Shown here: piece after piece, positions 14,730-58,744 of the stretch
Position numbering within the stretch: position 1 is the first letter of the stretch
How the letters are laid out: every line of letters starts with the position of its first letter
Assembly: GCA_963732795.1 (NCBI GenBank)
Contig: CAVTAV010000003.1
Location: 194,674 to 258,673 of the forward strand
Length of the DNA stretch: 64,000 nt
Direction of reading: 5' to 3'
Origin: an uncultured Alphaproteobacteria bacterium
GTDB lineage: Bacteria > Pseudomonadota > Alphaproteobacteria > CAVTAV01
Program-made: the position numbers and the translations under genes
The notes under the pieces: generated by a model
What the model was told of the DNA's origin: nothing
Seen by the model: only the letters and a program-made list of their open reading frames with translations
The model's database searches: none

Positions 14730-14745
14730 TGGCATGGCACTTGCA
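14730..14745 (+). promoter_or_regulatory. Sigma-54 (-24/-12) promoter
   Basis: TGGCATGGCACTTGCA = TGGC-N7-TTGCA, upstream of the polysaccharide export operon. Confidence 0.7.
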
Positions 14746-15027: not shown

Positions 15028-15666
15028 GTGTCTGATAATCGCAAAAAGCTTTTGGGGATTGGTCCGATTCTGATCGGTGCGGCCGCCCTTCTGCTGGCTG
15101 CATGTGCAAGTCATGGAACGCTGCCGTCGGCGGCGTTTGTCAGCCCCAAAGAGGGACCGGGACCGGATTACATCATCGGTCCGTTGGACACCCTCCAAAT
15201 CTTTGTGTGGCGCAACGACGAAGTCTCGACGTCCGTCACGGTTCGGCCCGACGGCCGGATTTCGGTCCCGTTGATCGACGATCTACCGGCAACCGGCAAG
15301 ACCTCTACGCAGCTTGCTCATGATATCGAGCAGGCCCTGAGCAAGTATATAAAAGATCCCCTCGTCACCGTGATGGTTAACGGCTTTACCGGGCCGTTCG
15401 CGCAGCAGGTCCGCGTCGTCGGCGAGGCCCAGCAGCCGCAGGCCATCCCCTATCGGGCCAACATGACCTTGTTGGACGTGATGATCCAGGTCGGTGGCCT
15501 GACTGAATTCGCCGCCGGAAACCGCGCCACGCTGGTGCGGATGGAAGGCGGCAAGCAGAAGCAATATCACCTTCATATCGCCGACCTCGTCAAAGACGGC
15601 GACGTGCGGGCGAATGTCGAAATTCTGCCGGGCGACGTGATCATCATTCCGGAGAGCTTCTTCTGA
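15028..15666 (+). CDS. wza: Polysaccharide export lipoprotein (Wza/OPX-like), XrtA system
   Basis: Lipobox LLAAC; YIIGPLD, VRPDGRISVPLI, GGLTEFA, PGDVIIIPES. Confidence 0.92.
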   Translation: MSDNRKKLLGIGPILIGAAALLLAACASHGTLPSAAFVSPKEGPGPDYIIGPLDTLQIFVWRNDEVSTSVTVRPDGRISVPLIDDLPATGKTSTQLAHDIEQALSKYIKDPLVTVMVNGFTGPFAQQVRVVGEAQQPQAIPYRANMTLLDVMIQVGGLTEFAAGNRATLVRMEGGKQKQYHLHIADLVKDGDVRANVEILPGDVIIIPESFF

Positions 15667-17444: not shown

Positions 17445-18385
17445 ATGTCTATTATTGATAAGTCGACCGCCAAAGCGAAGGAAGAGGAGGGCAGCTCTCT
17501 GGTCGAGCGCGCGAGCGGCAAGATCAGCGACGTCAGCGCAAACGACCAGGCCGCCACGCCGAAAAAGGCGCAGGACGCCCCCAAGATCAAGAGCAAGGGG
17601 CGTAAGGCGGCAAAGCCGACACCTTCGAACGATACCGGCACGCGTCATAGCAAGCGCGCCGTCATCGATCTCGAACGGCTCCGGGTCGGCAAACATCCTG
17701 ACGCCGGACAGCGATCCCGGCCAGACCTTCGAGGAGTTCCGGATCGTCAAGCGTCAGCTCCTGAACAATGCGTTCGGTGTCGGCGACAAGGCGATCAAGA
17801 ACGGGAACCTCATGCTGGTCACGAGCGCCGAGCCCGGCGAGGGCAAGACGTTCTGCGCCATCAACCTGGCCATGAGCATCGCCTCCGAGCAGGACCTCAC
17901 GGTCCTTCTGGTCGATGCCGACGTGTCCAAGCCTGACGTTCTCTCGTCACTCGGCGTGCAGGGCGGCAAGGGCCTGATGGATATCATCGCCGATGATTCC
18001 GTCGATGTGGCCGATTGTCTGCTCAAGACGAATATCGAGAACCTGACGCTCCTGCCGGCAGGCCGGGCGCACAAGCTCTCGACCGAGTTGATGGCATCGG
18101 AGCGTATGGGGCGGTTCGTCAAGGAAATTGCGCAACGCTACCCTGATCGCGTAATTATCTTCGAACTCCGCTCCCGCGCTGGCGAGCAGTGTGCCTGGCG
18201 TTCTTGCGATGCATGTCGGCCAGGTCCTGTTCATCGTCGAGGCGGAACGGACGAGGGAGAGCCAGGCCAAGGAAGCCCTGTCGATGTTGAGCTCCTGCAA
18301 GTATATCAGCTTGCTCCTCAACAAGGCTCGGTTCACCAGCGGCATCAAGCGCTTCGGTTCCTACGAAGGTTATGGATATCCATAG
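17445..18385 (+). CDS. Protein-tyrosine autokinase (BY-kinase), XrtA-associated (frame breaks)
   Basis: EEFRIVKR, Walker A SAEPGEGKT, LLVDAD, C-terminal Tyr cluster GSYEGYGYP. Confidence 0.9.
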
Positions 18386-18396
18386 AGTCAAGCGAC

Positions 18397-19917
18397 GTGA
18401 ACATTGAACAGATTCATTCAATCTCAGTTCGTCGGTCGGTTTTGGGAAACAGGGGGGCGCTTCTGGCGGGCGTATGCCTCGCCCCCTTCATCGCGACCGC
18501 CCTTTCGAACACGGCGTCAGCGGCGGACTGGCGGCTGATCCCGTCCGTCAGCTTCGGCGAGACGTATACGGACAACGTCCGCCTCTCCAACACCAACAAA
18601 CGAGATGACTGGGTCCAGTCGATCCAGCCGCGGCTTCAGCTGACGACCGAAGGGCGACGCATTACCGCAGACATCACGGGCGGGGTCGATTACCTCTACT
18701 TCGATCGTCTGAATAAAGACGACCTTCGTCCGGACGTCCAAGGAACGGCTACGATCGACGCGGTTCCCGATCTATTGCGGATCCAGGCGAACGTGTCAGT
18801 GACCCAGCGCCTTATCAATCCCGCCGGTGTTTTCTCGATCTCGCAGTTCAATGACACTACCAACCGGCAAACGCTCCAGCTCTATTCGGCCGGCCCGACG
18901 CTTTATCACCGCTTCGGAGGCTTCACCGACGCCCAGCTGACCTATCAGTTCAGCTTCACGAATGCCAACCGGATCAATCAGGTGGTTGGGGGGCCGCTGA
19001 CCCAAACGCTCAGCAATCGCTATCTGCACAACTTGCTCTTCCAGGCGGATAGCGGCGACGATTTTACAAGATTTACCTGGAGCGCGACCGCCAACTATTT
19101 GAATTCTACCGCGCGGAACAGGTCGACCACGCCGCCGACGTCGAGGAATCGAGAAAGATTCCTCAGCCAGGTGACCGGGAACTACGAGATCAATTCGACT
19201 TTGGCCGCGATCGTTCAGGGTGGCTACGACTATATCGGCGGCGTCGCCACGGTCGGCCCAGGCCGGCCACTCAGGGGCGGATTCTGGTATGAAGGCGGAT
19301 TCCAGCTGAATGGGCCGCGGACGACGTTTCAGTTTCTCGCTGGTCGGCGATTCGGCGGGTTGGCTATCGACGCGAATCTGACCTACCGCATTTCTAGCCG
19401 TACGTCGTTGTCGGCGAGTGTCACGCAGGATATCACGTCGTCCGCGGCCCGATTGATCTCGCTTCTTGGTCTTGCGGCCGCATCCGATTTTGCGACAACC
19501 TTCGGGCTTGATCCTCAGTTTACGCTGTCGGACGAACTCTATTATAGCCGGCGGGGACAGCTGCAACTGAACGGATCGCGCGGAAAGAACTCTTTCAGCA
19601 TCATGGGTTACGTCAATCGCCGGTCGTTCCGAATCGTGCCGCGCAGCGACTTGATCTATGGCGGTCGGGTCACTTGGTCGCGTCAGCTCAATCGGAAATG
19701 GACGTTCGATTCGCTCGGGCTCTATACCCACCAGCATTTCAACAACGTCACGTTCCGCCGCGATGATATTATTGCGGGTCAGCTTGGCCTAACCGACAAC
19801 TTCGCGCGAAGCTTCAATGCGTCGCTAACCTACCGATACAGCTATCGGCACTCGAACGTGCAGATCTTCAACGTCCAAGAGAACGCCGTTACCTTGCTTT
19901 TAACCGCGATATTCTAG
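18397..19917 (+). CDS. Outer-membrane beta-barrel, PEP-CTERM EPS system
   Basis: Signal peptide (...ASAA), ETYTDNV, alternating beta-strand pattern, C-terminal ENAVTLLLTAIF. Confidence 0.85.
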   Translation: MNIEQIHSISVRRSVLGNRGALLAGVCLAPFIATALSNTASAADWRLIPSVSFGETYTDNVRLSNTNKRDDWVQSIQPRLQLTTEGRRITADITGGVDYLYFDRLNKDDLRPDVQGTATIDAVPDLLRIQANVSVTQRLINPAGVFSISQFNDTTNRQTLQLYSAGPTLYHRFGGFTDAQLTYQFSFTNANRINQVVGGPLTQTLSNRYLHNLLFQADSGDDFTRFTWSATANYLNSTARNRSTTPPTSRNRERFLSQVTGNYEINSTLAAIVQGGYDYIGGVATVGPGRPLRGGFWYEGGFQLNGPRTTFQFLAGRRFGGLAIDANLTYRISSRTSLSASVTQDITSSAARLISLLGLAAASDFATTFGLDPQFTLSDELYYSRRGQLQLNGSRGKNSFSIMGYVNRRSFRIVPRSDLIYGGRVTWSRQLNRKWTFDSLGLYTHQHFNNVTFRRDDIIAGQLGLTDNFARSFNASLTYRYSYRHSNVQIFNVQENAVTLLLTAIF

Positions 19918-24232: not shown

Positions 24233-24325
24233 CGAGGTCTTAACCGTAACCGCTTTGCAACCTTTTGGCCGCGATACTGGTGCTCAGCGGCTGGTTTTAC
24301 CGCCGCGACATCCCGAGAGTTGTGT

Positions 24326-25909
24326 ATGGGCCTTCGCGTAGACATCGAGGACCGGATCGTCCCGTCCTTCCTCCTTGACCGCCTGCAGGGAATCGCCGCT
24401 TGGCGTGTCGCCGGGCTTGTGATGGGGATCGGCCTCGCCGCCGTCCTGACGCTCTACGGCTCGACCGCCGCCATGCTGGTCAAGACCTGGGCCGTCTCCG
24501 ATTCCTACGACCAATGCTTCCTGATCCCGCCGATCAGCCTGTATCTGATCTGGCGCCATCGGCACCGGCTCCTCGCCGTCACGCCGCAGCCGGCCTATGG
24601 CGGCGTCGCCCTGATCGCGCTTTCGGGCGCGGCCTGGCTGGTCGGAAGGGCGGCTTCCGTCGATCTGGTCGAGGAGCTCGCCCTCGTCACCATGATTTTC
24701 GGGCTCCATCTCGCCGTGCTTGGCGTCAAGGCGACGCGGATCAATTTCTTCCCGCTGGCCTACCTCTATATGGCCGTGCCGATGGGCGCGTTTCTCATCC
24801 CGCCCTTGCAGCAGATCACGGCCGACGCGGCGGTGTTCCTTTTGCGTCTCGTCGGCGTGCCGGTCTTCATGGAAGGGACCTATATCACCATTCCGAACGG
24901 CACCTATTTCGTCGCCGAGGCCTGCGCGGGACTCCGCTTCCTGATTGCAACGGTCACGCTCGGCGTGTTGTTCGGCTATTTCTACTACCGCTCGCCCTGG
25001 CGCTGGATCGCCTTCATGGCGCTCTCCGTCGTCGTGCCCGTCGTGGCGAATTGCCTTCGGGCCTTCGGGGTCATCCTGCTCGGATATTTCACGAGCACCG
25101 ATGTCGCGGGTGGCTTCGACCATATCTTCACGGGCTGGGTCTTCCTCTCGCTCGTCACCATCGCCTATCTCGCGATCGGCTATAGCTTCAGCGACCGGAA
25201 GCACGAGAAGGACCAGCCGCCCGAGCCCCATGCGACCATCGCGACCCTGGCGCCGCAGCAGGTTCTCCTAGCGGCGCTTGCGGCCCTCGTGGTGGCCGTC
25301 GCGCCCCAGGCCTATGCCGTCCATATCCGCGATGTTGCCAGCCGGGTCGATCTGCATCCGCTCCTGCCGCTGCCGACCGTCGGCGAGCCCTGGGCTCCGA
25401 TGGACTACGACCAGAATCTCTGGACTCCGCGGTTCGCGGGCGTGGATGCCAGCATCGCCAAGAGCTACCGGAACGCCGATGGGGAGGAGGCCGACCTGTA
25501 TATCGGCTATTACGCTCGCCAGCGGGAGGATGCCGAGCTTCTGGCCTATGGCAACCAGGTCGTCGATTTGGACAAATGGCGGCTCGTTAACGATAATTCG
25601 GTGTCGGTCCCGCTCTGGGGTCGTGATACGATCGTGGACGAAATGCAGATCGACCTAAACGGGTCCCGGCGGCTGGTCCGGTACTGGTATTGGGTCGACG
25701 GCGAATTCACGGCCAATCCGTATTGGGCCAAGCTCTTGTTTGCCCGTTCGAAACTATTGGGCGGTATACAGGGAGCAGCGGTCATCGCGGTGAGCGTGCC
25801 CTTCGAGGACGGGCCCGCGGCGGCACGGTCGCGACTGGACGACTTCCTGGCGAATGTCATGCCGCTGGGAGACGTCCTTATGAGCGTGAACGGCGGCAGG
25901 AAGAGCTGA
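24326..25909 (+). CDS. xrtA: Exosortase A with fused C-terminal EpsI domain
   Basis: Multi-TM; catalytic-type motifs VAEACAGLRFL (Cys), ANCLRA (Arg), DHIFTGW (His); EpsI-like tail with YWYWVDG. Confidence 0.93.
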   Translation: MGLRVDIEDRIVPSFLLDRLQGIAAWRVAGLVMGIGLAAVLTLYGSTAAMLVKTWAVSDSYDQCFLIPPISLYLIWRHRHRLLAVTPQPAYGGVALIALSGAAWLVGRAASVDLVEELALVTMIFGLHLAVLGVKATRINFFPLAYLYMAVPMGAFLIPPLQQITADAAVFLLRLVGVPVFMEGTYITIPNGTYFVAEACAGLRFLIATVTLGVLFGYFYYRSPWRWIAFMALSVVVPVVANCLRAFGVILLGYFTSTDVAGGFDHIFTGWVFLSLVTIAYLAIGYSFSDRKHEKDQPPEPHATIATLAPQQVLLAALAALVVAVAPQAYAVHIRDVASRVDLHPLLPLPTVGEPWAPMDYDQNLWTPRFAGVDASIAKSYRNADGEEADLYIGYYARQREDAELLAYGNQVVDLDKWRLVNDNSVSVPLWGRDTIVDEMQIDLNGSRRLVRYWYWVDGEFTANPYWAKLLFARSKLLGGIQGAAVIAVSVPFEDGPAAARSRLDDFLANVMPLGDVLMSVNGGRKS

Positions 25910-25945: not shown

Positions 25946-27878
25946 ATGTGCGGCATAACCGGCATCATGGACACGGGCGGCAAGCGCGAAATCGATCGCG
26001 GCACTGCTCGGACGCATGAACGACAGTCAGACCCATCGCGGGCCCGACGAGCACGGACTCTATGTCGCGCCGGGCATCGGGCTCGGCCATCGCCGGCTGT
26101 CGATTATCGACCTTTCTTCGGGCCAACAGCCGCTTTTTAACGAGGATCACTCGGTCGTTGTCACGTTTAACGGCGAAATCTATCAATTTTCAGTCCTTAA
26201 CGACCGAACTTTTGGCCAAGGGACACAAGTTCCGGACCCATAGCGACACGGAAGTGATCGTGCATGCCTGGGAGGAATGGGGCGAGGATTGCGTCAAGCG
26301 GTTCCGCGGCCAGTTCGCCTTTGCGGTCTGGGACAGCAATTCCGAGACCCTGTTCCTGGCGCGCGACCGGCTCGGCCAGAAGCCGTTGCATTACACCGTG
26401 CTCGCCGACCGGACGCTGGTGTTCGGCTCGGAGCTGAAATCGGTTCTGACCCATCCGGCCACACCGCGCGTAATCGAGCCGCAGAGCGTCGAGGACTATT
26501 TCGGCTACGGCTATATCCCGGACCCGCGGACAATCTTCAAGGGCATCTACAAACTGCCTCCGGGGCACACGCTTGACGATCCGCCGCAATGCCGCTGTGC
26601 CGGCGCCGAAAGAGTACTGGGACATCTCGTTCGACGAAGACGCTCGGCCTTTCCGAGCAGGAGATTTGCGAGGAGCTGATCACGCGGCTGCGCGAGGCCG
26701 TGAAGATCCGCATGATCGCGGACGTGCCGCTCGGTGCTTTCCTCTCCGGCGGGGTGGATTCGAGCGCGATCGTCGCCTTGATGGCGCAAACTTCCGACGC
26801 GCCGGTCAATACCTGCTCGATCTCCTTCGACGTGCCGCAATACGACGAGTCCAAATACGCTCTCGAAGTCGCCCAGCGATACAAAACCAATCACAATACC
26901 AAGCTCGTCGATCCCAACAGCTTCGACCTCGTTGACCGTTTGGCCGGCTTCTTCGACGAGCCCTTCGCCGATTCCTCCGCGATGCCGACCTTCCGGGTCT
27001 GCGAGCTCGCCCGGGAGCGGGTGACCGTGGCGCTGTCGGGCGATGTCGGCGACGAGCTTTTCGCGGGCTATCGGCGCTATCGTTGGCATCACTATGAGCA
27101 GTCGATCCGCAACAGGTTCCCGCAGGCGTTGCGCGGGCCGCTCTTCACGGTGCTCGGCCGGCTATACCCGAAGATGGACTGGGCGCCGAAAGTGCTGCGC
27201 GCTCGCTCGACCTTCCAGGCGCTCGCGGAAGATCCCTTCATCGGCTATTTCCACAGCGTTTCGGTGCTGCGCGACGAGCTACGGAGCCGGCTGTTCAGCG
27301 ACAAGATGCGCGGCGAGCTTCAAGGCTATCACGCCGCCAATACCCTGATCGACGCGATGAACGCGGCCAAGACCGACGACGACCTGTCGCGCGCGCAATA
27401 TGCCGACATGAAGACCTATCTGCCCGGCGATATCCTGACCAAGGTGGACCGCACCAGCATGGCGGTCTCGCTCGAGGTCCGCTCGCCGATCATCGATCAC
27501 GAGTTCATGGAATGGGCCGCCGGCATCCCGGCCGCGATGCGGCTCAAGGGCCGGGAAGGCAAGTACATCTTCAAGAAGGCCTTGGAGCCCCATCTGCCCC
27601 ACGACGTGATGTATCGCGAGAAGATGGGCTTCGCCGTGCCGATCTCGGAATGGTTCCGCGGGCCGTTGCGCCAACGGGTCGGCGAGTCGCTCGCGAGCGA
27701 CGTTCTGGCCGACACCGGCATGTTCGATATGGGCTATCTGCGCAAGCTGGTCGAGCAGCACCAGTCGGGCGTGTCCGAGCATTCACCCGCGCTTTGGGCG
27801 CTTCTGATGTTCAAATCCTCGCTCAGGAAGCTGTTCGGCGAAGCCGATTCCGTCCCGCAGCGCCGTGCCACCGCCTAA
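25946..27878 (+). CDS. asnB: Asparagine synthase (glutamine-hydrolysing)-type amidotransferase, XrtA system (frame breaks)
   Basis: MCGITG, HRGPD, HRRLSIID, NGEIY, SDTEV, FLSGGVDSS, DEPFADSS, KVDRTSMA. Confidence 0.9.
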
Positions 27879-34759: not shown

Positions 34760-36066
34760 TCAGACGCGCGCGGATTCCGATTTAGGTATCGGAAATATAA
34801 CGGAAAATGTCGATCCGACGCCTTCCTTGCTCGTGACCGACAGAGCGCCCCGGTGACGGTTTACGATGTGTTTGACGATCGCGAGGCCGAGGCCGGTTCC
34901 GCCCAGTTCGCGCGACCGCGCCGAATTCCACGCGGTAAAACCGTTCCGTGAGTCGGGGGATATGCTCCTGGGCGATCCCGGGGCCATCGTCCTTGACCGC
35001 AACGATAACGGCGGGTCCCACGATCTGCGGTGCCGATTCCGCTGGCCGGGCCGAAACCTCCACCGTGCCGCCGGGCCGGCCGTATTTCACGGCATTGTCG
35101 ATAAGGTTTTGAAAAACCTCGATCAATTGGTCCCGGTCGCCAAGGATCTTCGGCAGACCTTCCTCGATTTTAAGAGTGACGGTGGCTTGGCGGCCGACGG
35201 CGCGAGGTTGGATCGTTTCCTTGACTCCCCTGAGGACCGCCCGCGAGATCGATCGGCGTGCTCGGCGGCGTATATTCGTCGAGCTCGATCCGTGAAAGCG
35301 ACAGCAGATCTCCGATTAGGCGGGTCATTCGGGCCGATTCGCGCTGCATGATGGCGAGAAATCGCGTGCGGGCCGCCTCATCCTTGCTGGCCGGCCCCTG
35401 TAGCGTCTCGATGAAGCCGACCAGGCTCGCAAGGGGCGTACGCAGCTCATGGCTGACATTGGCGACGAAATCCGCCCGCATCTGCTCGGCGTGTCGAATA
35501 TGGGTAATGTCATGGAGTGCGATCGCCGTGGTCAGGCGGTTGCGCGTGAGAATGCGTGGCGGCGCCGGCATACGCGGGTCCAACAATCTGGTCGCGCGAA
35601 GCAGATAGGTTCTAACCACTGCCCCCGGCACGTTGATTTCCGTGGATTGCTCCGGCCCTCCTGCATCCAGCACGTCGATGGCAGCCAAAGCAGCGGGCTG
35701 GCGCAAATGCAGGGCAATGTCATCTCCGGTGACCGGCCGCCCGAGGAAGGACTCCGCAGCCGAGTTGGCGAAGATGATGCGTCGATTCGAATCGAGGAGA
35801 AGGAACGGGTCCGTCAGGCCATTGAGAAGGGCGGTGCTGAAAACCGGTGATTCGTCGCCGGTATCCGTCGTGATCGTCGTTGTGACGGCGGCGGGCATAG
35901 CGGGTCTGGAGGCCGTGTTGAGCCAGCCCGCAGTGACGGCGCCAAGACTGGAAACAATAATGATCGTGGCCACCCAACCGTATGCGAGACCACCCGCGGC
36001 GCCGAGAATGAGCACAAGCACTTGAACCGCGAAGAGACCGATCAAGATTGAGCGAAGATGGGACAT
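34760..36066 (-). CDS. phoR: Sensor histidine kinase PhoR (frame breaks)
   Basis: Two N-terminal TMs, PAS, H-box [16 protein letters not shown]-box [27 protein letters not shown]. Confidence 0.9.
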
Positions 36067-36153
36067 GACCAGTAAACTAACTGCCCCGTGGCGTCCCGCA
36101 AGCTGGAAAATGTGTCCCGATTTGGTACGCCGACAACGGGCGGAAAGAAGAAA

Positions 36154-36168
36154 TTAACCATAATTTAT
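36154..36168. promoter_or_regulatory. CtrA-like site TTAA-N7-TTAT
   Basis: TTAACCATAATTTAT in the divergent region between phoR and the peptide operon. Confidence 0.5.
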
Positions 36169-36332
36169 AAGGAAAGCTGGGCGTTTTGGCCAAGTTTTTT
36201 CAGTTGGTGTGCCTCTTGCTTCAAATCAAAGCGTCATTCGTCGCCCCGTGTAAAAGGAAACGGTGACAAGTTATCAATATAATTGCTATATTGAATCGTG
36301 TCCGAGTGGGTTTATTAGTACGGAAGAGTTCG

Positions 36333-36683
36333 ATGAACGGTAACGGTCAGCTTCCTCCGCAGTCAGACGAGAATGCCGGGGCCAGCGCGGAGGAGACCAA
36401 GCGGGCGCTTCGGCGTCGCATTCTCAAGGCCGGATTGATCGGTGCGCCGGTGGTGGTGACGCTGCAAAGCAATTCCGCCTGGGCGGCGTCCATGACCTGT
36501 CTTCAGAATCTTAAGGTGCCGGAAGACATCACGACGCCTTACCGGAATTCCGAAGGACCGTTGGTCCCTTATAACAGTCACGATCCGAAGCATGTCGGCT
36601 ATATCAACGCGCTGCAGCACGATCAGACCATGAATGGCATGCCGGGCTATTCCTGCGTCGCGTCGATCATGACCAATACCTGA
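36333..36683 (+). CDS. Small protein with twin-arginine-like leader; candidate modified-peptide precursor (116 aa)
   Basis: GGAAGAG RBS; RRRILKAGLIGAPVVVTLQSNSAWA leader; mature part has two Cys and ends SCVASIMTNT; first gene of the PqqD/kinase operon. Confidence 0.75.
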   Translation: MNGNGQLPPQSDENAGASAEETKRALRRRILKAGLIGAPVVVTLQSNSAWAASMTCLQNLKVPEDITTPYRNSEGPLVPYNSHDPKHVGYINALQHDQTMNGMPGYSCVASIMTNT

Positions 36684-36707
36684 TCGGTCGCACCGGGTTC
36701 GACAATC

Positions 36708-37001
36708 ATGGCCGAATCGGCGGTTAAGTGGGCGGCTTGCGATGGCGAGGCGCTCGTCTGGCGCGACTGGGATGACGGTTCCGCCGTCTATGACACTCGT
36801 TCCGGACAAACCCACATCCTCGATCTGGTCGGGCGGCTCGTGGTCGTCGAGCTCGGAGAGGCGCCCGCGTCCGTCCGGGAGCTCGCCGAGCGCGTAGCCG
36901 AAACCACGGGCGGCGCGCCGGATGCCCCTCTGCGTAACCAATTGCACACCTTATTGGGCGAATTAGAGCACCTCGGAATCATTGAGGTAATCGCCGCGTG
37001 A
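36708..37001 (+). CDS. PqqD-family peptide chaperone (RRE), HprK-related kinase A system
   Basis: 97 aa; WRDWDDGSAVYDTRSGQTHILD strands followed by helices ending LGELEHLGII. Confidence 0.85.
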   Translation: MAESAVKWAACDGEALVWRDWDDGSAVYDTRSGQTHILDLVGRLVVVELGEAPASVRELAERVAETTGGAPDAPLRNQLHTLLGELEHLGIIEVIAA

Positions 37002-37915
37002 GAGTGCAGGATCTCTCCGAAGACGACATCCAGCATCGGTTAAGGTCAGACGGGCTCTATTTCAGGCTCGGGGCCTTCACGACGCGCGTTCGCTCGGTCT
37101 ATCCGGCGATGGCGACCGACTTCCGCCGCCTCTATGGCGCCTGCGAGGTAGATACCCGGGACAGCGAGATCACCGACTTCTTCCTGAACCTTTATGCGCC
37201 GTCCCGAACCCGCAGCATCTTGCGGCCGCAGGTGATGGCGGATGTGGAAGGGCCGGGGCCGTTCATTCCTCTGCCGTCCAAGATGACGTTGCTGATGCTC
37301 GAGACGGCGATGAACTGGTGCGTCGCCTCGCGCGTCCGCTCGATGCTGCTGTTGCACTCCGCCGTGGTCGAAAAGAACGGCAGGGCGGTGATCCTCCCGG
37401 GCCAGTCCGGCTCGGGCAAGAGCACGCTCGCCGCGGCGCTGGTGGCGAATGGGTGGCGGCTTCTCTCCGACGAGTTCGCCTTGATCCGTATCTCCGATGG
37501 AGCCTTGGTGCCCTATCCCAGGCCGATCTCGCTCAAGAATGAATCGATCGAGCGAATGAAGGCGATGTTTCCCGACGGCACCTTCGTCGGCCCGTTCACC
37601 GACACGCCCAAGGGCACGATCGCCTATCTCGCCGCGCCGTCTTCCGCGATCGAGAACGATCAGGTCGCCGTGATGCCGCGCGCCGTCATCTTTCCGACCT
37701 ATGAAAGTGGCGCGTCCCTCAGATCCGACGAATGGCCAAAGGCGGCGGGGCTCGGGCGCATCGCCCTCTATTCGGTCAATTACACGCTGCTCGGCCGCGC
37801 CGGCTTTGAGGCGCTCGCCGACCTCGTCGACCGGTGCACCATCCGGACGGTTACCTATTCCAGCCTCGACGACGCCATCGGCTTCGTCGAGGACACGGTC
37901 GGAACGGAGGCCTGA
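36998..37915 (+). CDS. HprK-related kinase A
   Basis: LHSAVVEKNG, Walker A GQSGSGKST, LLSDE, PRPISLKN, TPKGTIAY; GTGA overlap with the PqqD gene. Confidence 0.9.
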   Translation: MRVQDLSEDDIQHRLRSDGLYFRLGAFTTRVRSVYPAMATDFRRLYGACEVDTRDSEITDFFLNLYAPSRTRSILRPQVMADVEGPGPFIPLPSKMTLLMLETAMNWCVASRVRSMLLLHSAVVEKNGRAVILPGQSGSGKSTLAAALVANGWRLLSDEFALIRISDGALVPYPRPISLKNESIERMKAMFPDGTFVGPFTDTPKGTIAYLAAPSSAIENDQVAVMPRAVIFPTYESGASLRSDEWPKAAGLGRIALYSVNYTLLGRAGFEALADLVDRCTIRTVTYSSLDDAIGFVEDTVGTEA

Positions 37916-37918
37916 GCG

Positions 37919-39064
37919 ATGACCATCCGCCGGCCCCCGGTTCCGGGTCTCGACGTCTTTCTGGACGCCCTCACTCGGCCCGAGACAATGGAGCGTCTGA
38001 AGCCCGTCGAATGGAACGACGTGCTCCGCTTCGCCCGGCAGACCGCGCTGGTCGCCCGGCTGGGCTATCTCGCCCGCGAGGCCGGGATATGGGAGCGTAT
38101 CCCGGAAAAAGCCCGGCAGCATTTCGACTCCGCCGCCGTCATCTCCCGCGACAATCAGCGGATGATCCGCTTCGAGGTTGCAAGGATCGCCGATACGCTC
38201 GCCCATGCCGACGTTCCCTTCGCCCTGCTGAAGGGTGCGGCCTATGTCTGGTCCGGGCTCGACATGTCCCGTGACCGGCTGTCCTCCGACATCGATGTTC
38301 TCGTCGCCCACCGCGACCTCGACGCCGCCGAAGCGGCCGTGAAGCTCGCGGGCTGGGTGCCGATGAAGGGGGAGGATGATTACGACGACTATTATTATCG
38401 CGCCTGGATGCACGAATTGCCGCCGCTCCGCCATCGCGACAGCAACACCGTCATCGATATCCATCACACGATCCTGCCGGTAACGAGCCGTCTGCATCCC
38501 GATCCGGCGCTGCTGCTCGGAGAGATGGTCCCGATCGAGGGCGGGCGGCTGCATGTTCTCGCGCCGAAGGACATCGTTCTCCACGCCGCGGCCCATCTGT
38601 TCTATGACGGCGACTTCGATCGCAGGCTGCGTGACCTTTACGACCTCGACCGACTGCTCGCGCATTTCGGCGAGCGGCCCGGCTTCTGGGATGCCCTTGT
38701 GCGCCGCGCCGACATTCTCAATCTGACACGGCCGCTGTTCTATACGCTCAGATACTGCGCGGCGCTTCTCGGCACGCCGGTTCCGTCAAGCGTGACCGAG
38801 CGTCTCGCCCCAAGCGCGCCGTCCGCTCTTGCGCTCTTCGCGATGGACCGTCTGGTGCCCAGGGTGATCATGCCTCGTAATGCAGACTATCCGAGCCGGC
38901 TGACCTCGTTTGCGGCGCTTCTTCTCTATATTCGGTCGCACTGGCTGAAGATGCCGCCGATGCTGCTGGCGCGGCACTTGCTGCGGAAGGCCTTCAAGCG
39001 GGTCGGATTCGGCGCGGGAGCCGAGGGGACGATGCCCGATGGCCGAAAGGTTTCCCAGCACTAA
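37919..39064 (+). CDS. Nucleotidyltransferase family protein (NTP_transf_5-like)
   Basis: LLKGAAY, SSDIDVLV, YYRAWMHELPP, IDIHH, LRDLYDL, YIRSHWLKMP. Confidence 0.88.
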   Translation: MTIRRPPVPGLDVFLDALTRPETMERLKPVEWNDVLRFARQTALVARLGYLAREAGIWERIPEKARQHFDSAAVISRDNQRMIRFEVARIADTLAHADVPFALLKGAAYVWSGLDMSRDRLSSDIDVLVAHRDLDAAEAAVKLAGWVPMKGEDDYDDYYYRAWMHELPPLRHRDSNTVIDIHHTILPVTSRLHPDPALLLGEMVPIEGGRLHVLAPKDIVLHAAAHLFYDGDFDRRLRDLYDLDRLLAHFGERPGFWDALVRRADILNLTRPLFYTLRYCAALLGTPVPSSVTERLAPSAPSALALFAMDRLVPRVIMPRNADYPSRLTSFAALLLYIRSHWLKMPPMLLARHLLRKAFKRVGFGAGAEGTMPDGRKVSQH

Positions 39065-39197
39065 TCAAATCTTTACTCGGGACCGCTACAAACGCCCTCG
39101 TCCTCGTAGCGAGTAGTAGTATGATGCAGGAGCCGATCCGGTGCCGCCGGTCCGCTTCGTCGGTGGGAGCCCGGCCGAGGACATAATCCCCCAAAGA

Positions 39198-39470
39198 TCA
39201 AACTTCCTCGATATCGAAATCCGCCGCGCGCGAATGATTGCCCACGAAGACGCGGAGCACCCGGCGTCCTTTGAACGCCACGTGCCAGACGCCGTCCTCG
39301 CTCTCGTCCCTGGCGACCGATTCGATGCCGCGCGAGTCATAGGCCGTGCGGGTCTGGATGAAGCTGCGGACTCCTTCCTCGGTGTTGGAGAAGGTTTTGA
39401 CCGGCTTATGGGGATCCTTCCGGGCTACCAGCTTGTCGGTCAGGAGAGACGGCTTCTTGGTCTTGGCCAT
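39198..39470 (-). CDS. Hypothetical protein (90 aa)
   Basis: Clean ORF with GC3-biased codons filling the gap downstream of the DUF3553 gene. Confidence 0.6.
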   Translation of the reverse strand: MAKTKKPSLLTDKLVARKDPHKPVKTFSNTEEGVRSFIQTRTAYDSRGIESVARDESEDGVWHVAFKGRRVLRVFVGNHSRAADFDIEEV

Positions 39471-39569
39471 GATGGTGTGGTTGTACTCACGCGTGGACAG
39501 GGACTCGCGGGCCGATCATATCGGCAAGGTGGCCCCGATGTGTAGGGGCGGCCGGACGCGCCGCTGCAA

Positions 39570-57364: not shown

Positions 57365-58744
57365 TTAGAGCGCCACCCGCCGGGGTTCGCTGCTGCCTTC
57401 GCCGGGCACCGGAATGTCGGCGCCTTCCTCGCTGTATTGCTTCAGCTTGTTCCTGAGCGTGCGGATCGAGATGCCGAGAATATTGGCGGCATGAGTCCGG
57501 TTGCCGAGGCAATGGCGAAGCGTGTCGATAATGAGATCGCGCTCGACATCGGCGACCGTCCGGCCGACGAGGCCAGCCGCCGTCTGGGTCGCCGTCGCGG
57601 CGGCCTCGGTCGCAACGCCGTGCCCCTCTTCGCCGCCGCCCATGCCGGCATCCGGCGCCATGATCGCCTCCGGGCCGATCTCGTCTCCGGTCGCGAGCAG
57701 CACCGCGCGATGCATTGTGTTCTCGAGCTCGCGGACATTGCCCCTCCAATAGCGCTTGGACAAATCCCGCATCGCTTCTTCGGAGATCTTGCGCCGCGGC
57801 ACGCCGTTGATCTCGGCATATTTGCCCGCGAAATGCTCCGACAGCAGCTTGATGTCGGCCGGGCGCTCCCGGAGGGGCGGGACCTTCAGGTTGACGACAT
57901 TCAAGCGGTACAGCAGGTCCTCGCGGAAATTGCCCTTGCGGACTTCCTCGGCGAGATCGCGGTTCGAGGTCGCGATGATGCGCAGATCTACCTTGACCGG
58001 CTTGTTGCCGCCGACCCGGTCGATCTCGCGCTCCTGGATCGCGCGCAGCAGCTTGGCCTGGAGCCGGATATCCATCTCGGAAATTTCGTCGAGGAGGAGC
58101 GTGCCGCCGTTCGCTTCCTCGAACTTACCGATGCGCCGGGCGACCGCGCCGGTGAACGCGCCCTTTTCATGGCCGAACAGCTCGGATTCGAGCAGATTCT
58201 CCGGAATCGCCGCGCAATTGACCGAAACATATTGCTTGTCGGCGCGCCGGCTCTTGCCATGGACGTGACGGGCCAGCACCTCCTTGCCGGTTCCGGACTC
58301 GCCGGTGATCAGAATGTTCGCTTCGCTCGGGGCGACCTGGTCGGCCAGTCGCACGACCTCCGCCATGCGGGAATCGGCGAACATCAGATCGGTGCTGTCC
58401 TCCGCGACCGCTTCCAAGACCGCGGCGATAAGCTCGGGATCGGGCGGCAAAGGAACATATTCCTTTGCCCCGGCGCGGATCGCCTCCACGGCCGAGCGCG
58501 CGTCCGAGCCGATGCCGCAGGCGACGACCGGGACATGGATGTGTTCGGCTTCCGTGCGGGCGATGAATTCGCGGATGTTGCACTCGACGTCGATCATCAC
58601 GAGATCGGCGCCATGGCCGGATCTGAGCGCATGCAGCGCCTGGTCGATACTCACCGCGTGAGCAACCTTGGCGCCTCTGCCCATGGCAATCTTCGAGGCG
58701 GCGCCCATTTGCCCACTGAGGGTTCCGACGATGAGTAAACGCAT
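57365..58744 (-). CDS. flbD: Sigma-54 activator FlbD
   Basis: Atypical REC (MRLLIVGTL), GESGTGKE, GAFTGA, Fis HTH LGISIRTLRNKL; position in the fliF operon. Confidence 0.9.
   Translation of the reverse strand: MRLLIVGTLSGQMGAASKIAMGRGAKVAHAVSIDQALHALRSGHGADLVMIDVECNIREFIARTEAEHIHVPVVACGIGSDARSAVEAIRAGAKEYVPLPPDPELIAAVLEAVAEDSTDLMFADSRMAEVVRLADQVAPSEANILITGESGTGKEVLARHVHGKSRRADKQYVSVNCAAIPENLLESELFGHEKGAFTGAVARRIGKFEEANGGTLLLDEISEMDIRLQAKLLRAIQEREIDRVGGNKPVKVDLRIIATSNRDLAEEVRKGNFREDLLYRLNVVNLKVPPLRERPADIKLLSEHFAGKYAEINGVPRRKISEEAMRDLSKRYWRGNVRELENTMHRAVLLATGDEIGPEAIMAPDAGMGGGEEGHGVATEAAATATQTAAGLVGRTVADVERDLIIDTLRHCLGNRTHAANILGISIRTLRNKLKQYSEEGADIPVPGEGSSEPRRVAL

Follow-up and report, generated by a model that had tools for sequence, protein, structure and literature searches.

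We analyzed a candidate protein-modification operon in the genome of an uncultured alphaproteobacterium, using a 64,000-nt stretch of contig CAVTAV010000003.1 (assembly GCA_963732795.1, positions 194,674 to 258,673), hereafter the window, whose own coordinates are used throughout. Four co-oriented plus-strand genes occupy 36333-39064, separated by gaps of 24, -4 and 3 nt and free of internal stops in the list of open reading frames (ORFs), in agreement with a preliminary description of this DNA that had pointed to four packed, frame-intact genes. They encode, in order, a small precursor-like protein of 116 aa (36333..36683), a 97-aa PqqD-family recognition element for RiPPs (peptides made by the ribosome and modified after translation), that is, a peptide-binding chaperone (RRE; 36708..37001), a 305-aa HprK-related kinase A (36998..37915) and a 381-aa NTP_transf_5 protein with a nucleotidyltransferase fold (37919..39064). 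The kinase start overlaps the stop of the PqqD-like gene by 4 nt. The operon is flanked by phoR on the minus strand upstream (35170-36066) and by two small minus-strand ORFs downstream, and it is free-standing, away from any glycosyltransferase gene. As the preliminary description had also stated for cyclases and proteases, the ORF list revealed no cyclase, protease or transporter gene within the operon or adjoining it; no transporter gene was present between 35170 and 40516, and no terminator-like site was found in 35900-39500.

Profile searches identified the three enzyme-like products. The PqqD-like protein scored above the cut-offs of both TIGR04353 (54 bits, cut-off 35) and PF05402 (23.5 bits, cut-off 23.4). 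A profile built from 37 RRE orthologues and compared with the PDB matched TfuB1 (6jx3, E 0.011) and TbiB1 (5v1u, E 0.018) best, over nearly the full length, and both of these are lasso leader-binding proteins; a PDB search with the single RRE sequence returned chance matches only. The kinase matched TIGR04352 (HprK_rel_A) with 292.6 bits (cut-off 200) over positions 2-277 of the 280-position profile, carries an intact Walker A motif, GQSGSGKST (residues 135-143, nt 37400-37426), and has the HPr kinase/phosphatases 1ko7 (E 7e-4) and 1jb1 (E 2.7e-3) as its best solved relatives, aligned around the P-loop. The nucleotidyltransferase matched the full PF14907 (NTP_transf_5) profile (172.3 bits, cut-off 31.2, E 1.7e-50) and contains the Asp pair D124 and D126 in SSDIDVL; no solved relative was found for it by sequence. 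With the P-loop and the Asp pair intact and ratios of nonsynonymous to synonymous substitution (dN/dS) of 0.15-0.26 for the three enzyme genes, the kinase and the transferase look functional.

The small gene is the least familiar member of the set. Its longest ORF spans 36291-36683 and starts with TTG at 36291; the ATG at 36333, which gives the 116-aa product, is preceded by GGAAGAG and is invariant in an alignment with the two closest loci, L005 and L006. Homologues in public data formed ten clusters (58-99% identity, 116-121 aa), and dN/dS was 0.22 and 0.19 versus L005 and L006, respectively. Judged by these comparisons, the small ORF is a real gene under purifying selection, and its family has one copy in this genome. 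Salt-marsh metatranscriptome contigs with an identity of at least 99% to the window, from four of four libraries, cover 36128-36863 including the small gene, although DNA carry-over into these contigs is possible. Two of them (36322-36863 and 36330-36790) continue from the small gene into the RRE gene; the sole difference seen was C>A at 36411, which is synonymous in the R27 codon. No such contigs lie over the kinase and transferase genes, and this uncovered part is uninformative. One metatranscriptome contig in the covered stretch (35920-36863) includes the 5' end of phoR. In twelve DNA rows from salt marsh and soil, at least half of the words sampled from 36100-39100 were present.

To place the operon in a broader context, we surveyed the kinase across 401 sampled genomes of the phylum (counting the unpublished genome G383), of which 62 contained TIGR04352 above the cut-off. 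Of these matches, one contig-end fragment (G206) was left out, and the 63 loci compared comprise the window, L005 and L006, 30 loci with flanks of 1.5 kb and 30 with flanks of about 4 kb. A hidden Markov model (HMM) built from the upstream ORFs recognized exactly one ORF in 49 of the 63 loci and no other ORF among 2614 in total, and four further homologues were found by eye (L009, L061, L062 and L063). In 53 of the 63 loci, the kinase gene thus has as a neighbor a conserved small ORF of the form RRxxLK...APxxxTL...AxA, proposed in the preliminary description as the substrate. The RRE gene was present in 54 loci, 51 of which also have the small gene (the exceptions being L028, L064 and L065), so that small, RRE and kinase genes stand together in 51 of 63. 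Among the nine RRE-less loci, seven also had no small gene (L030, L031, L047, L049, L057, L066 and L055, the last cut by a contig end) and two, L058 and L059, carry a long variant of it. With the small gene in 51 of 54 RRE loci but only 2 of 9 RRE-less ones, the small and RRE genes come and go together; at L027 they are paired on the opposite strand. Six loci (L030, L031, L047, L049, L057 and L066) have a kinase above the cut-off with no RRE or small gene in the fetched DNA; L030 has a toxin-antitoxin-like insert upstream and, at L031, a glycosyltransferase gene abuts the kinase gene.

Conservation within the small protein is highest in its leader and its C-terminal motif. All of the motifs named in the preliminary description are present, namely R27-R28-R-I-L-K, A38-P39-V-V-V-T43-L44 and A49-W-A51. 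On the plus strand, the RRRILK twin-arginine motif (R27/R28) maps to 36411-36416, P39 to 36447-36449, T43-L-Q-S46-N47 to 36459-36473, AWA to 36477-36485, C56 to 36498-36500, C108 to 36654-36656 and Ser111 to 36663-36665. An alignment of 38 homologues, representing the three forms that share a C-terminal motif, left only R27, R28 and Ser111 invariant besides Met1, with K32, P39, T43, C56 and C108 conserved in at least 90%. Across ten close homologues, residues 20-53 and 101-113 had mean column identities of 0.89 and 0.94, respectively, versus 0.68 in the intervening residues 54-100, a pattern that fits a recognized leader and a modified site. The short form found in this window has 116-123 aa; a related form from another alphaproteobacterial family has about 130 aa and ends in GFTCFASLQMPRG; and a longer, common form of 150-200 aa ends in ...SCWxSF. 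In 85 sequences of this longer form, the two arginines, the proline, the threonine and two cysteines were invariant and the serine was present at 90%. A further group of 190-290 aa (L008, L010, L013, L029, L033, L037, L044, L058 and L059) keeps the RR...T-x-x-S leader on a different, longer C-terminal domain that often ends in Y-L-x-x-x-W. The same leader on a different C-terminal domain suggests that these enzymes handle several types of cargo.

The family is large but carries no name in the databases searched. A profile search of 1.84 billion representatives revealed 1689 proteins at E <= 0.001, the weakest of which may match over the signal-like region only, with 163 at 1e-10 and 15 at 1e-30. 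The small protein had no Pfam or NCBIfam match, and no family was assigned to 17 family members, seven tested against NCBIfam and ten against Pfam. A methylamine dehydrogenase light-chain cluster (protein-atlas score 0.84) was considered and kept as no more than a lead, the top atlas rows being unnamed clusters. An AlphaFold2 model of the 116-aa protein showed no confident fold, and its mean predicted local distance difference test score (pLDDT) of 51.7 made it too poor for a fold search. A 183-aa longer homologue (P0011) gave a better model (pLDDT 70.4, with 74-90 over most of residues 71-183) containing a small alpha/beta domain of moderate confidence. Compared with the PDB using Foldseek, this model (m04502459e427) had no solved match, the one hit being at E 7.7, and the mature domain of the longer form, as modeled, may represent a fold not yet solved.

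Two published systems bear on what these genes might do. In Bacillota, clusters for linear polyphosphorylated peptides (LPP; Popov et al., Nat Commun 2026, PMC13381572) combine a 35-200-aa precursor with an RRE, an HprK-like kinase and an NTP transferase and are sited in capsule loci, according to the available text of that paper. The same text describes a kinase that polyphosphorylates the core Ser3 with up to four phosphates, a leader removed by a signal-peptidase-I-like enzyme cutting after T-1, and a transferase gene whose deletion had no visible effect. Among lasso peptides, the available text of PMC8498205 reports that an HPr-kinase homologue phosphorylates the C-terminal precursor Ser of paeninodin and pseudomycoidin ahead of the later processing and that the pseudomycoidin nucleotidyltransferase adds hexose to the phosphate.

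On balance, we think it somewhat probable that the operon is a self-contained protein-modification cassette whose first gene encodes the substrate. The PqqD-like RRE would bind the N-terminal leader of the 116-aa protein, comprising RRRILK, the P39-centered hydrophobic stretch and T43, and would present the small protein to the HprK-related kinase for phosphorylation of a serine, possibly several times. The NTP_transf_5 enzyme would then add a group to the phosphate, by analogy a sugar and not a nucleotide. The nucleotidylation put forward in the preliminary description is unfounded, as the pseudomycoidin transferase adds hexoses (PMC8498205) and deletion of the LPP transferase had no effect in the text available (PMC13381572). 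Because it begins with a region shaped like a twin-arginine signal peptide, the modified protein would be exported by a general pathway (twin-arginine translocation, Tat, or Sec) and trimmed by a housekeeping signal peptidase, which would explain a cassette without its own peptidase or exporter. The proposal that signal peptidase acts as the leader peptidase has since gained a precedent in the signal-peptidase-I-like enzyme of LPP clusters (PMC13381572, as far as the text available goes). The product would probably have a role in the cell envelope or matrix.

Two serines are candidate phosphosites. Ser111 lies in the C-terminal C-x-x-S-hydrophobic motif, and no other residue of the mature part is invariant across the three forms with that motif. 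Ser46 lies in T-L-Q-S-N, which resembles the T|A-Q-S-N of the LPP precursor. As a universal phosphosite, Ser46 was ruled out because 18 of 52 members have no serine there, and it was kept as a candidate for the present subfamily. The stretch I36-G-A-P39-V-V-V likewise resembles the RRE-binding motif [Y/W]xxPx[L/V/I], without its aromatic residue. These resemblances to LPP and lasso motifs are short and could be due to chance.

A more specific version, which we regard as possible but doubtful, holds that the twin-arginine signal is itself the RiPP leader, such that the RRE would retain the mini-protein in the cytoplasm until a phosphate-linked decoration had been built and would then release it to general export and signal peptidase. 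If true, this would constitute a covalent-modification checkpoint on Tat export, in which the signal peptide doubles as recognition leader, and it would explain how a Gram-negative LPP-like pathway operates without its own peptidase and pump. By inspection, the leader comprises R-R-R-I-L-K, twelve weakly hydrophobic residues (A33-L44) and A-W-A, and the genome encodes tatC on contig C5 (178 bits, cut-off 132.7), read in two adjacent frames.

Several observations count against the proposed cassette or parts of it. The small gene was missing from the fetched DNA of 10 of 63 kinase loci (one cut by a contig end; 30 of the loci have 1.5 kb flanks), and within the same DNA only 46 loci had a transferase homologue and only 37 had the complete set of four genes. 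None of the serines is shared by every subtype, with [TS]-x-x-S present in 34 of 52 and the C-terminal C-x-x-S in 39 of 52, and cleavage at AWA|A would discard Ser46 with the signal peptide. Tat-signal HMMs gave no match to the small protein at E <= 0.1; the putative signal was read from the sequence by inspection. Tat usually carries folded proteins, whereas the 116-aa protein has no confident fold in the model, and the earlier suggestion that it is exported folded is therefore doubtful. The leader also has no Tyr/Trp of the kind that lasso and LPP leaders are described as requiring in order to bind their RRE (available text of PMC13381572). A complex prediction from an RRE alignment and a precursor alignment scored 0.03, the mark being 0.32; it gave no answer and counts neither way.

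In one alternative, the N-terminal region would be only a cytoplasmic RiPP leader, cut after T43 by a peptidase encoded elsewhere to leave a core starting L-Q-S46-N with Ser46 as the phosphosite, and the product would leave the cell otherwise or stay inside. The resemblance of T43-L-Q-S-N-S-A-W to the LPP sequence T|A-Q-S-N-W-K, in which Ser3 is phosphorylated, fits such an arrangement, as does the x-x-x-P-x-V-hydrophobic form of I36-G-A-P39-V-V-V, which is that of the RRE-binding motif. Moreover, the conservation of P39 and T43 (at least 90%, and invariant in the 85 longer homologues) exceeds what a signal peptide needs. However, the 18 members without Ser46 have R, P, N or G at that position, the proline and threonine are 4 residues apart compared with 12 in LPP precursors, and no peptidase or exporter is encoded nearby. 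The R-R-x-hydrophobic-L-K motif, the 12-residue weakly hydrophobic stretch and A-x-A also match a twin-arginine signal, and we consider a purely cytoplasmic leader unlikely.

The genomic setting of the kinase raises a different alternative. Exosortases were detected in 27 of 62 kinase-positive genomes versus 34 of 339 others, counts in which related genomes are not independent, and 20 of 30 genomes with XrtA above the cut-off have the kinase. The kinase and an XrtA-like gene were both present in 26 genomes, though on one contig within 60 kb in only 8 of these, and no exosortase was seen in 35 of 62 kinase carriers. In the window the two are 12.6 kb apart. Of the tie to the neighboring XrtA system suggested in the preliminary description, the enrichment therefore stands but a general rule does not. 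In addition, 25 of 52 loci have a GT4-type glycosyltransferase gene upstream of the small gene and on its strand, with 12-115 nt between the two. The cassette thus goes with surface-glycan loci generally, with XrtA a frequent but not required neighbor.

In this alternative, the kinase and nucleotidyltransferase would act on a carbohydrate or lipid-linked exopolysaccharide intermediate, with the small protein merely a co-transcribed envelope protein and the PqqD-like protein in some other role. Both the upstream GT4-type genes and the enrichment of exosortases among kinase carriers agree with such a carbohydrate substrate, as do the several kinase loci without both RRE and small gene and, in the available text of PMC13381572, the fact that activity of the LPP transferase on peptide could not be shown. 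Against it, RRE domains are peptide binders, the best solved relatives here are leader-binding proteins, and the small and RRE genes are gained and lost together. A peptide serine is the substrate in both studied relatives of this kinase type, and in the window the operon stands apart from any glycosyltransferase; we judge a carbohydrate substrate to be improbable. It is more improbable still that the PqqD-like protein serves solely as a chaperone of the signal peptide, delaying export, while the kinase and transferase act elsewhere and the small protein leaves unmodified: a leader conserved beyond the needs of export and the co-occurrence of RRE and small genes agree with this, but the union of small, RRE and kinase genes in 51 of 63 loci, the 4-nt overlap of RRE and kinase genes here and the modification of their peptide by homologous triads do not.

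The XrtA/PEP-CTERM exopolysaccharide locus of the window lies at 9.9-27.9 kb and was recognized by profile matches as a textbook gene set. It includes an acyl-CoA ligase (TIGR03098, 776 bits), an export protein (TIGR03027), a chain-length determinant (TIGR03007), an ATPase (TIGR03015), a deacetylase (TIGR03006), a tyrosine autokinase, an amidotransferase (TIGR03108) and exosortase A (XrtA) fused to EpsI (24320-25909; 294.6 bits, cut-off 208). XrtA is 10.4 kb upstream of the small ORF, with pst genes and phoR in between. Elsewhere in the genome, a second exosortase gene (G000:C4:194331-195113) fell short of the XrtA cut-off with 181 bits and reached 167 bits with a general exosortase model. Fusions or readings in two frames affect several genes, including phoR (34760-36066), the XrtA-locus amidotransferase (26062-27878) and tatC (G000:C5:65461-66115), as well as the tyrosine autokinase together with an outer-membrane protein (17455-19917). 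This suggests indel errors of assembly and not pseudogenes, and the four operon genes are intact despite such splits elsewhere in the genome.

The adjoining phoR is back to back with the cassette in eight loci (the window, L005, L006 and L060-L064) from two alphaproteobacterial families, and kinases of the second family (L060-L064) are only 35-38% identical to that of the window. No Pho box was recognized by eye. The pairing could mean that a phosphate-rich product is tied to phosphate status through the phosphate regulon, or it could be an old arrangement that has been retained.

Within the 266-nt region upstream of the small gene, two elements are conserved in the window, L005 and L006. The first is a sigma-54-type -24/-12 element, TGGTGTGCCTCTTGCT, at 36205..36220 on the plus strand, found as a match to the pattern TGG-N8-TTGCW. 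In 15 of 52 loci, this pattern lay no more than 450 nt upstream of the RR codon, compared with 1 of 52 in antisense and a background of 0.03 per 450 nt; across the window it was observed 6 times versus 2.06 expected, a number that 5 of 100 shuffles reached. Among these six is a strong sigma-54-type element, TGGCATGGCACTTGCA, at 14730-14745, which precedes the XrtA/PEP-CTERM export gene (15028-15666) by about 280 nt. In this genome, which is 81% complete, no match to the PrsR regulator (TIGR02915) reached the cut-off (best 342 bits versus 502.6), but several sigma-54 activators are encoded, one of them in the window at about 57365-58744 on the minus strand. The second element is a nearly invariant block at 36262-36293 that holds the palindromes TGACAAGTTrTCA and AATATn-n-TATATT. 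It overlaps a putative sigma-70-like promoter on the plus strand (36263..36292; GTGACA-18-TATATT with TG extension, 10/12 in a consensus scan), and on its sequence may be an operator site. Three of the RNA-library contigs start at 36318-36330, downstream of this promoter, which is a weak hint of its use.

Finally, we compared the cassette with known systems. It is a member of the NCBIfam HPr-rel-A system, whose two models, TIGR04352 and TIGR04353, are matched above their cut-offs by adjacent genes; this is the named PqqD/kinase family to which the preliminary description had referred. The NTP_transf_5 gene, which here begins 3 nt after the kinase gene, we take to be a usual companion of this system. 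The system names two proteins only, and the small upstream protein falls outside any NCBIfam or Pfam model, such that a kinase found in 62 of 401 genomes of the phylum has a likeliest substrate with no family name. Our literature search returned no relevant paper on the HPr-rel-A system, on the small protein, on PqqD-HprK pairs or on a tie of twin-arginine signals or exosortase/PEP-CTERM systems to such proteins.

The cytoplasmic retention proposed here has a parallel in the proofreading chaperones of redox enzymes (TorD/DmsD/NapD type), which bind twin-arginine signals and delay export until maturation. In both cases, a small cytoplasmic protein would hold a signal-bearing substrate until it had matured in the cytoplasm, but here that protein is a PqqD-like winged helix and maturation would consist of covalent phosphorylation or decoration instead of cofactor insertion.

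Lasso peptide tailoring shares with the operon an HPr-kinase homologue, a nucleotidyltransferase and an RRE, as described in the available text of PMC8498205. Unlike lasso clusters, the operon encodes no Asn-synthase-like macrolactam cyclase or B2 leader protease, and its substrate would be a 116-aa signal-bearing protein with a conserved Ser 5 residues from the C-terminus, not at it. The two Asn-synthase-like genes of the window were rejected as lasso cyclases, scoring 76 and 70 bits against a cut-off of 525 compared with 640 and 180 bits as XrtA amidotransferase. The cassette had earlier been cast as a non-lasso class, for which there has been a precedent since LPP clusters were published in 2026.

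LPP clusters provide the closest functional comparison, drawn here from the available text of PMC13381572. Shared features are a separate RRE, a kinase resembling HprK, an NTP transferase and a precursor of 35-200 aa, a likeness by family. Macrolactam cyclases are absent from both, both lie in or near polysaccharide loci, leader removal is of the signal-peptidase type in both (as predicted for the window), and T-x-x-S-N follows the leader (T43-L-Q-S46-N47 here, T|A-Q-S3-N in LppA). In contrast, the cassette lacks counterparts of LppS, the dedicated archaeal-type signal peptidase I, and of LppD, the MsbA-like exporter, its leader has the form of a twin-arginine signal, and its host is an alphaproteobacterium. 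The LPP motif YxxPxVLxHQxIxFETxxS is not matched, there being no aromatic residue before P39 and a different spacing from P to T, so that only P-x-V-V and T-x-x-S-N recur. With the peptidase, the exporter and the leader motif of LPP clusters lacking, the cassette should not be filed as an LPP cluster. In that text, LPPs are called restricted to Bacillota, and it makes no mention of Proteobacteria, twin-arginine signals or exosortases. Should the small protein prove to be the substrate, the range of phosphorylated linear peptides, described in 2026 from Bacillota only, would extend to Proteobacteria, and a decorated, secreted mini-protein would be a frequent companion of exopolysaccharide and biofilm-matrix loci. 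The cassette is widespread and a proteobacterial variant of a recently described kind; by analogy it would work most like an LPP cluster, of which it looks like an undescribed Gram-negative cousin.

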